A stretch of DNA of 55,937 nt, counting the filler, from Sluysia triapertura (lineage: Eukaryota), in NCBI GenBank assembly GCA_046118255.1. It is 3 parts of 3 records of this genome, joined end to end, with 100 filler letters (N's around TTAATTAATTAA, not from the genome) between each part and the next. Parts side by side here need not be neighbours in the genome. Positions count along the whole stretch, not along the records: positions 35,695 to 55,937 come from JBJNIA010029942.1; 2 more parts are not named here. The stretch is one strand, 5' to 3'. Shown one piece after another: positions 51,514 through 52,377 of the stretch. Both the position numbers and the translations under genes were made by a program. Each line of letters starts with the position of its first letter. Positions within the stretch are counted from its first letter, which is position 1. The notes beneath the pieces are model-generated. The model did no database searches. It saw only the letters and a program-made list of their open reading frames with translations, and was not told the DNA's origin.

Positions 51514-52377
51514 ATGACTATGTCTTTATTTTACAAAATTAACAAAACTAACGAAAGAAAAAAAACTAATGAAAGAAAGAAAACTAACAAAAGAAAAAAA
51601 ACTAACGAAAAAAACAAAAATATAATTGATGTTATCGTTTCTGAGCCAGCATACAATGATAGTGAATGTTTACTTAACTCTAACCTTGACAATATTACTA
51701 CAATGGATTTAATTGGATTTAGAGGTTCAGAATTTGTTTCACGTTTAATTGTTTATTTACAAAAAAAGGCATTAATGCAAAAAAATATAACTACAAATAT
51801 ATCAATTTCACATGTTGGTTTAGCAGTGCGAGGTAAAGATATTTCCGAATTTCTGCAAGGCAAACAAAGGCGTTTTGACAAAAATATCTTAAAATCTGAA
51901 GTATATGTTTTTGAATCTACTGCCTCTGGAAAAATATTGGACCGAGTACCAGATGTACTCGGACAGTATTATTTTGGTGTACAGTTAAGACTTTTGAAAA
52001 ATGTAATAAATAATTATTCTGGAAATATTTATTGGTCAAAAAAAAATTTTCAATTAAACAAGTGTCATTATGAAAAATTAGCTGAATTTATACACACATA
52101 TTATTATAGGCCGTATGAAAAATCATTAAAAATTATGTTTTCGAATTTTTTTCCATGCATTAATGTTAAAGATTTATCACCTACTGATTCTGTGTTTTGT
52201 TCTGAATTAGTAGCCAGATGCTTAATTTGCCTTGGTTTTATGAATGAAACAGTAAATCCAAAAAGAGTTGTACCTATAGATTTTTATCCAAACCCAAATG
52301 ATCCAACGAAAACATATGATTTAGATAATGAAGTACCTCTTTTATACAGTGATCCTATTAAGTTATCAATAAACTAA
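51514..52377 (+). CDS. Permuted papain-like NlpC/P60 amidase (YiiX/YebB/peptidase C92, poxvirus G6R-like), intact and intronless, 287 aa
   Basis: DLIGFRG, SHVGLA (His), VFES, GVQLRLL, RPY and FCSELVA (Cys) in permuted order; N-terminal KKTNER x4 basic repeat. Confidence 0.8.
   Translation: MTMSLFYKINKTNERKKTNERKKTNKRKKTNEKNKNIIDVIVSEPAYNDSECLLNSNLDNITTMDLIGFRGSEFVSRLIVYLQKKALMQKNITTNISISHVGLAVRGKDISEFLQGKQRRFDKNILKSEVYVFESTASGKILDRVPDVLGQYYFGVQLRLLKNVINNYSGNIYWSKKNFQLNKCHYEKLAEFIHTYYYRPYEKSLKIMFSNFFPCINVKDLSPTDSVFCSELVARCLICLGFMNETVNPKRVVPIDFYPNPNDPTKTYDLDNEVPLLYSDPIKLSIN

Follow-up and report, generated by a model that had tools for sequence, protein, structure and literature searches.

We report on a 287-residue open reading frame (ORF) in the genome of Sluysia triapertura that is, at a probability of about 0.6, an old, domesticated horizontal acquisition from a giant virus, which the host would have kept as a predicted cysteine hydrolase acting on fatty-acyl bonds. 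Enzymes of this family were known already, as were cases of domesticated foreign genes; what appears to be new is a lineage-restricted, triplicated animal family of the YiiX/G6R kind. In the literature we found neither an animal nuclear YiiX/G6R gene nor a giant-virus gene kept in flatworms, entries that supplementary tables could list, and a survey of 7,103 eukaryote assemblies names, in its accessible part, Orthopolintovirales for Rhabditophora (10.1101/2025.04.19.649669).

The reading frame and its surroundings

The window (the whole stretch of DNA analysed, 55,937 nucleotides) consists of three joined stretches, and the ORF sits in the third, made up of contig G000:C29942 in full. As an earlier note on this DNA had stated, the ORF is intact and intron-free: it runs from ATG to TAA over 287 codons with no internal stop, a length reached in 0 of 200 shuffles of the contig, and it carries the SHVG and FCSELVA motifs around His100 and Cys229 (Table 1). 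A Pfam search of six of the eight ATG-started window ORFs of at least 100 residues returned no other intact enzyme, in line with the same note. The start common to all three type A copies that have a 5' end (types are described below) is the second ATG, at 51520.

Table 1. Features of the amidase locus, in window positions
Feature	Position	Strand	Remark
Type A copy: permuted papain-like NlpC/P60 enzyme, YaeF/YiiX/G6R kind, 287 aa	51514..52377	+	
Stretch common to type A copies	50618..52659	+	5' end vs C189423, 3' end vs C204805
TATA-like word 51458-51465 and initiator-like TCATT 51488-51492	51458..51492	+	canonical spacing
18-bp in-frame tandem repeat x4.2, KKTNE[RK]	51544..51619	+	outside catalytic domain; recent, specific to this copy
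His100, predicted catalytic base	51811..51813	+	invariant in 139/139 aligned rows
Glu134, predicted third triad residue	51913..51915	+	99% of 139 rows
Tyr201, predicted NlpC/P60 signature tyrosine	52114..52116	+	95% of rows
Cys229, predicted nucleophile, start of catalytic helix	52198..52200	+	99% of rows
AATAAA	52473..52478	+	about 100 bases past stop; also in C204805 copy
Decayed Helitron (PIF1 helicase) remnant	53537..53644	+	neighbour; absent from other amidase contigs examined

The KKTNER repeat had been proposed as a nuclear localization signal. Its units number 1, 2 or 4 in three type A copies, and the repeat is absent from types B and C and from the outside partners P0001-P0003. Because it is confined to the A copies and is a recent 18-bp expansion, a conserved localization signal was rejected as a feature of the family.

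TATA-like and initiator-like words belong to the core-promoter consensus. The pair upstream of the ORF is a possible, weakly indicated core promoter: four such pairs occur in the 20-kb contig, and the TATA-like word is kept in two of three A copies. The AATAAA downstream is a possible polyadenylation signal. The predicted transcript would begin near 51490 and finish beyond 52478. Two pyrimidine-rich, acceptor-like TTGCAG sites also lie upstream (51288-51293 and 51387-51392) and are conserved in the C189423 copy, where the second reads TTGTAG; they might mark a 5' UTR intron or trans-splice sites. The interval 51010-51500, previously described as C/A-rich, does hold more C than G (16% v 8%), while its A content is that of the contig (38% v 38%). 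Its reported similarity to a "family head" dissolved into AT-rich pieces of at most 49 bases matching the rest of the window, and the family head was rejected as a candidate, the facing ATTGG/CCAAT pair at 51117-51137 not being retained in the C189423 copy.

The downstream Helitron remnant was confirmed, its sequence matching (E 2e-8) a frame of another contig, one whose frames hit PIF1 and Pif1_2B. The suggestion that the amidase is another cargo was not supported, as the unit shared by the A copies excludes both the Helitron remnant and the CCCH element of the window. Helitron capture was not supported either, with no Helitron match on 7 other amidase loci and the shared unit ending at 52659; cargo of the window's repeat family was likewise unsupported, the CCCH frame and the orphan ORFs being unmatched on the same 7 loci.

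Several other features were observed in the window. An Unkempt-like CCCH zinc-finger frame (39726-40920, minus strand, E 5e-7) follows a tandem Asp/Asn/Tyr-rich repeat, and CCAAT-type hairpins lie in pairs upstream of it, near 41010-41085; a broken DEAD-box helicase piece lies at 46982-47323 (plus strand, Pfam E 2e-5); and a very high-copy repeat at 49572-50340 (summed depth in run X1 45,000-66,000) ends about 280 bases 5' of the duplicated unit. An intact, intron-free 353-aa ORF (10769-11830, plus strand), with a short tandem repeat before it (10618-10765), and a 172-aa ORF (28836-29354, minus strand, 229 codons open) have no Pfam or PHROG match. On contig C6739, two adjacent orphan frames of 147 and 165 aa (L011:3228-3668 and 3710-4204, plus strand) lie about 3 kb 5' of a type A copy; they have no convincing family match and are not on other amidase contigs.

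Enzyme family, fold and predicted activity

Searched singly against Pfam and PDB sequences, the 287-aa protein was not recognized, and neither it nor anything in the genome reached the cut-off of PF05708 (Peptidase_C92). Among the 139 aligned relatives, 25 match PF05708 (E 0.01 or better), and a profile of all 139 matches BcPPNE (3kw0, E 4e-9) and YiiX (2if6, E 0.014). The AlphaFold model (pLDDT 89.6, pTM 0.87) aligned by VIA with 3kw0 at Z 15.2 (rmsd 3.1, 164 aligned residues) and with 2if6 at Z 13.2 (rmsd 2.8, 149 aligned); the next structure, a Euglena chain placed third in the fold search, scored Z 8.2. Foldseek of the model also ranked 3kw0 and 2if6 first (top 6 rows). Fold and catalytic residues thus agree with the earlier assignment to the permuted NlpC/P60 enzymes of YiiX/G6R type. 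That this is a real gene with a YiiX/BcPPNE-like fold is almost certain, and the protein is predicted to function like a PF05708 member though below the curated Pfam threshold.

His100, Glu134, Tyr201 and Cys229, together with Asp65 and Arg159, correspond to the residues by which the available part of PMC3142127 characterizes the permuted enzymes. The order is permuted, with His100 before Cys229, and the helix begins at the Cys in the model. The acidic position is occupied by Glu134, for which model strand 96-103 is cited and which is presumably equivalent to BcPPNE Glu64; the profile aligns Tyr201 with the Tyr of 3kw0 and 2if6. Asp65 of the GD motif (96% of rows), its partner Arg159 (99%), and Ser230 (99%) and Glu231 (94%) after the Cys are also conserved, and the Gly of the GD motif is replaced by Met64, likewise in close relatives. 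Compared with BcPPNE and YiiX, the protein has the same His-Glu-Tyr-Cys order, Asp-Arg pair, CSE motif and fold; it differs in being encoded by an animal nuclear gene, in falling below the Pfam threshold, in its replaced GD-motif Gly, in its low identity (18-24%), in its extra length of about 60 residues and in inserts that separate His from Glu or follow Glu.

NCEHF and NCN are the catalytic-Cys motifs of the LRAT/PLAAT and DeSI/PPPDE families. The protein has FCSEL at the catalytic Cys and lacks NCEHF. These families have a similar permuted papain core, and LRAT/PLAAT act on lipids, according to the part of PMC10318531 available; their fold scores are much lower (Z 5.6 for PLAAT4, Z 4.4 for DeSI), and they are not the source of the gene.

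In the accessible part of PMC3142127, BcPPNE bound lysine and YiiX bound a fatty acid, from which its authors propose cleavage of lipid-amino-acid amides; fatty-acyl amide or ester activity is there a proposal from bound ligands. Related permuted enzymes are phospholipases or acyltransferases, as far as the available parts of PMC10318531 and PMC12994826 go. By analogy, the activity is predicted to be that of a lipid amidase or acyl-hydrolase, and we consider fatty-acyl chemistry, with amidase ranked first, a reasonably good expectation. The two helices expected to line the S1 pocket are hydrophobic in sequence. Hydropathy over 19 residues peaks at 1.45, within the catalytic helix, and the N-terminal end is basic, so neither a membrane span nor a leader is apparent, which would place the action in the cytosol or on membrane surfaces. 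Since the protein is permuted and leaderless, peptidoglycan cleavage is unlikely. Phage records (tblastn) gave no match to the protein, PHROGs gave a weak match to phrog_1128 only (E 0.003), and a single distant protein among 7,993 candidates scored was a longer fused form, a weak indication.

Two domesticated foreign amidases are known from the available parts of the literature, tick Dae2 from bacterial Tae2 (PMC10318531) and the mite NlpC/P60 protein LytFM (PMC9113151). Both resemble the present case as papain-like amidases of foreign origin kept in animal genomes; in the parts of those sources at hand they are canonical, bacteria-linked cell-wall enzymes, whereas here the protein is permuted, leaderless and predicted to act on lipids, and a viral donor is indicated.

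Host DNA, paralogs and selection

The contig of the ORF has 24% GC and also carries an ASC/ENaC (sodium-channel) exon (35711-36265, minus strand, Pfam 8e-17); the match breaks off at a GT site resembling a splice donor. When contigs of run X1 were compared with the locus, pieces covered 50222-51460, 51516-51682 and 51890-53868 (8 of 103 listed), joining the upstream repeat to unique flank and the downstream flank to the Helitron remnant at host-like depth. Depth was 10-12 upstream and 18 downstream of the gene and rose to 32-34 over its 3' half, compared with 9-18 in other unique DNA of the contig; X1 is perhaps the source sample, so the coverage serves as a check of the joins and not as independent evidence. 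Four differences from the window, none giving a stop, in the piece over the 3' half indicate that near-identical copies or alleles were collapsed there.

The assembly also contains bacterial TPI genes (L058, L063) and four differing mitochondrial contigs (C219470, C200653, C192378 and C197277; L017-L019, L097) that are about 74-83% alike in their best-matching stretches and which we take to be fish-type; they are host, food or cross-contamination, and contamination therefore needed testing. A contaminant, virus or microbe in the sample, mis-joined to host DNA would fit these contigs and the fact that no listed X1 piece spans the whole locus. Against it stand ten amidase loci on nine contigs with broken copies, host GC and repeats in common with other host contigs, together with the X1 joins at host depth, and we regard it as most improbable. 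The mis-join that the earlier note had considered was thus, as far as testable, contradicted by the ENaC exon and the host-like depth, and we are highly confident that the ORF lies in host DNA.

Codon use is also that of the host: GC3 is 0.16-0.18 in the three amidase types, 0.14 and 0.25 in two host exons, and 0.21-0.66 in 8 viral or metagenome relatives. TPI exons compared with PDB showed that an animal gene is present in the assembly. On an AT-rich mitochondrial contig, AAA stands for Asn, ATA for Ile and AGR for Ser at conserved COX1 places; this is NCBI table 9, the code of rhabditophoran flatworms and echinoderms. A decayed copy of this COX1 (88%, with an in-frame stop) lies inside a 7-kb contig of 25% GC, which likely ties the table-9 mitochondrion to the nuclear genome, and from this code the host is probably a flatworm. 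Gene order on the table-9 contig C243991 (L020) resembles atp6-cox1-nad4, its COX1 start is unusual, and decayed copies of it occur on C37458 and C90747. A full-length 18S rRNA match (C2:8152-10759, L054) is 2.6 kb long, with long expansions and a highly divergent core.

Copy number and flanks were examined, as the earlier note had proposed. Three protein searches (9, 9 and 10 matches) identified the ten loci, which fall into types A, B and C with pairwise identities of 35-52%. Type A comprises the window copy and copies on C189423 (85%), C6739 (92%) and the end of C204805 (84%), the latter three all interrupted by contig ends. Type B comprises a broken copy on C111357 as well as C143236 and C231607, two pieces with 77 identical overlapping bases. 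For type C, C204805 carries an intact gene of 241 aa, and the copies on C206912 and C95379 are broken. With C189423 the window has 50618-52254 in common, with C204805 it has 52222-52659, and with C6739 only about 120 upstream bases; the shared A stretch is a segmental duplicate without fixed ends. Between types A, B and C no common ends or flanks were found, and coding introns are absent from all three, whereas the host genes for TPI and ENaC are interrupted or stop at splice-like sites.

In type C (L010:248-970) and P0003, the conserved T[AM]SG loop past the catalytic Glu is replaced by [TN]RVPK, and GVQLR by GV[RK]LR; these replacements may suggest a changed substrate.

Selection was assessed between the window copy and the C189423 copy. 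Their upstream DNA has 22 gaps in about 790 bases, 17 of them frameshifting, and 10.4% mismatches, while 696 bases of the ORF have no frameshifting gap, two in-frame gaps in the repeat and 7.8% mismatches, a gap test that is inflated by the AT-rich upstream DNA. At the upstream substitution rate, only 1.45% of 2000 neutral simulations left both lineages without a stop. Residues changed between A copies fall in less conserved columns (0.26 vs 0.42, p 0.001), with changes in 2 of 46 conserved columns and 29 of 167 others (p 0.03); in the A copies they concentrate at residues 112-151. The reading frame is thus kept under selection. The dN/dS of the window-C189423 pair was 0.78 (p 0.40), indistinguishable from 1; four longer A pairs gave 0.52-0.97, none different from 1, and the window lineage accumulated five amino-acid changes and no silent one over 112 codons. 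Between types, dN/dS was 0.34-0.49 in all four pairs (p 5e-7 to 0.005), ratios that are rough since dS exceeds 1. These results indicate a family conserved as protein, with a window copy that is loosely constrained in its amino acids. The earlier claim that the gene is still functional is supported and very likely for the family, whereas for the window copy it is likely only.

Relatives, origin and proposed history

A search of 1.84 billion representatives returned 432 proteins under 1e-3, 92 under 1e-10 and 3 under 1e-30, and a profile search of 5.8 billion clusters gave the same three at 1e-100 or better, the next standing at 6e-30. These three, P0001-P0003, come from contigs of 1,098-1,349 bases, sizes compatible with transcripts, which proves nothing; we infer that they are animal. 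Each type pairs with one of them at 49-57% identity, and beyond these identity falls to about one third. The labelled relatives are mostly giant-virus proteins, the remainder of the family being mainly environmental.

The tree, of 73 rows and 233 columns, comprised the 30 best hits, another 20 proteins, 19 loci and four rows from the host, leaving out L037, L084 and L086 (no frame extracted) and most of the 432 hits. Its topology was ((C,P0003) 100/99, ((B,P0002) 91/77, ((A,A2),P0001) 91/78)), with 99/99 for the whole group; the A-P0001 pairing is weak by score, A scoring 219 with P0002 and 216 with P0001. If P0001-P0003 come from animals, the three types arose before their carriers diverged, and three old types each with an outside partner argue that the acquisition is old.

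Could the types instead have diverged in a virus or large mobile element and arrived together as its remains or cargo, P0001-P0003 being viral and the copies in the host of more recent date than the tree implies? Types C and A do lie 8.9 kb apart on the 10-kb contig C204805, facing each other, but between them is just one weak open frame of at least 90 codons, no ends or flanks are shared between types, and the CCCH element, Helitron piece and shared orphan ORF are on none of the 7 other amidase loci examined. In codon use the genes resemble the host, not the relatives. Moreover, IMG/VR scans with the window protein, P0007 and P0004 found no relative, and a scan with the animal-clade alignment found one distant locus, so a close viral relative is missing there by protein and by alignment. 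Joint arrival is therefore unlikely.

Duplication within the host remains our preferred reading, with the gene likely acquired from a virus long ago, given that its nearest labelled relatives are giant-virus proteins. The animal genes and all 8 rows with a virus label lie on one branch (98/92), leaving aside 9 short or divergent rows. Atlas neighbours were 97, 93 and 66% viral, two of the three mostly Nucleocytoviricota; the best named BFVD matches include pithovirus, Yasminevirus, medusavirus and marseillevirus proteins; and the five best of 22 IMG/VR loci were four GVMAG records and a 520-kb contig. Among 50 neighbouring proteins from 8 loci, VLTF3 lies beside two metagenome relatives and Rpb2 beside a third. 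The earlier note's placement of the nearest relatives in large DNA viruses is therefore upheld, and the phylogeny it called for groups the animal genes with the virus-labelled rows without fixing the order inside the branch. A 64-kb metagenome contig that carries Thy1 and NIF genes also has, beside the relative P0004, a 3,317-aa ORF without Pfam match (L074:11199-21149, minus strand). Searches of the genome for major capsid, VLTF3 and A32 gave no match, in a fragmented assembly where two of three controls were also silent.

The giant-virus members (pithovirus, Yasminevirus, medusavirus, marseillevirus and poxvirus G6R/OPG091) are the nearest labelled sequences and folds and share the FEST.SG...GVQLR and V.P.DF motifs with the animal proteins. 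Identity to them is about 30-36%, and the animal genes have no viral neighbours. The animal Tyr-to-Cys segment is 26-28 residues long against a median of 34, with 11 of 135 others as short, and the animal proteins lack the Cys-rich insert of the best-scoring relatives.

A gain from a cellular microbe, a protist or intracellular bacterium whose subfamily is shared with giant viruses, would give the same enzyme chemistry. The viral nesting is not forced, as placing the animal group outside all viral rows costs 1.2 log units and is not rejected (AU p 0.43), and 49 of the 57 non-animal rows on the 98/92 branch carry no virus label. On this branch is also P0205, named as a bacterial MAG protein (Candidatus Paracaedibacteraceae), and the available part of PMC3142127 describes a Plasmodium homolog of BcPPNE. 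However, P0205 has a long branch and may derive from a mis-binned contig, scanning 185,579 prokaryote genomes twice yielded no locus in one scan and 3 weak ones (E 4e-5 or worse) in the other, and the labelled close relatives are giant-virus records or lie beside VLTF3 or Rpb2. We consider a microbial source rather unlikely.

The stem of the animal group is long (0.74 changes per site) and its position within the tree unsettled. This would suit an old eukaryotic gene inherited vertically and lost or diverged beyond recognition in most animals, with viruses as borrowers, as would the Euglena chain in the fold search and the other permuted NlpC/P60 families of animals (LRAT, DeSI and TMEM222 in the accessible part of PMC10318531). 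Vertical inheritance is nevertheless quite improbable: only three close relatives appeared in the two large searches, none of 30 relative clusters examined carries an animal name, the three types are intron-free while host genes are split, and the PLAAT4 and DeSI folds score far lower. Taken together, a horizontal rather than vertical origin is very likely, and given transfer, a giant virus is the probable donor.

We propose that the gene would have been acquired once, long ago, from a giant virus and then duplicated into types C, B and A before the split from the sources of P0001-P0003. Later segmental duplications, some of them decayed, would have followed, the window copy being a recent A duplicate under loose amino-acid constraint. 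Following the family chemistry in the available parts of PMC3142127, PMC10318531 and PMC12994826, Glu134 would orient His100, which would activate Cys229 for attack on the carbonyl of a fatty-acyl amide or ester. The fatty chain may occupy a hydrophobic groove that runs between two helices, at about residues 74-88 and 205-210, and Tyr201 may steady the intermediate by holding the carbonyl. The acyl-enzyme would then be resolved by water, as in an amidase or phospholipase, or by an acceptor, as in an acyltransferase.

In its most specific form the proposal is tentative: a giant virus (Nucleocytoviricota) may have entered an ancestral flatworm germ line, its G6R-like enzyme having been triplicated and, from a time before distant worm lineages diverged, kept as a lipid-remodelling or defence enzyme. 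If true, the reach of giant viruses extends to flatworm germ lines, and the genes are fossil evidence of giant viruses meeting flatworms. The substrate of the family has been approached mainly through bound ligands; the three old host paralogs would then allow it to be tested and offer an RNAi-tractable route to the substrate of this viral family.
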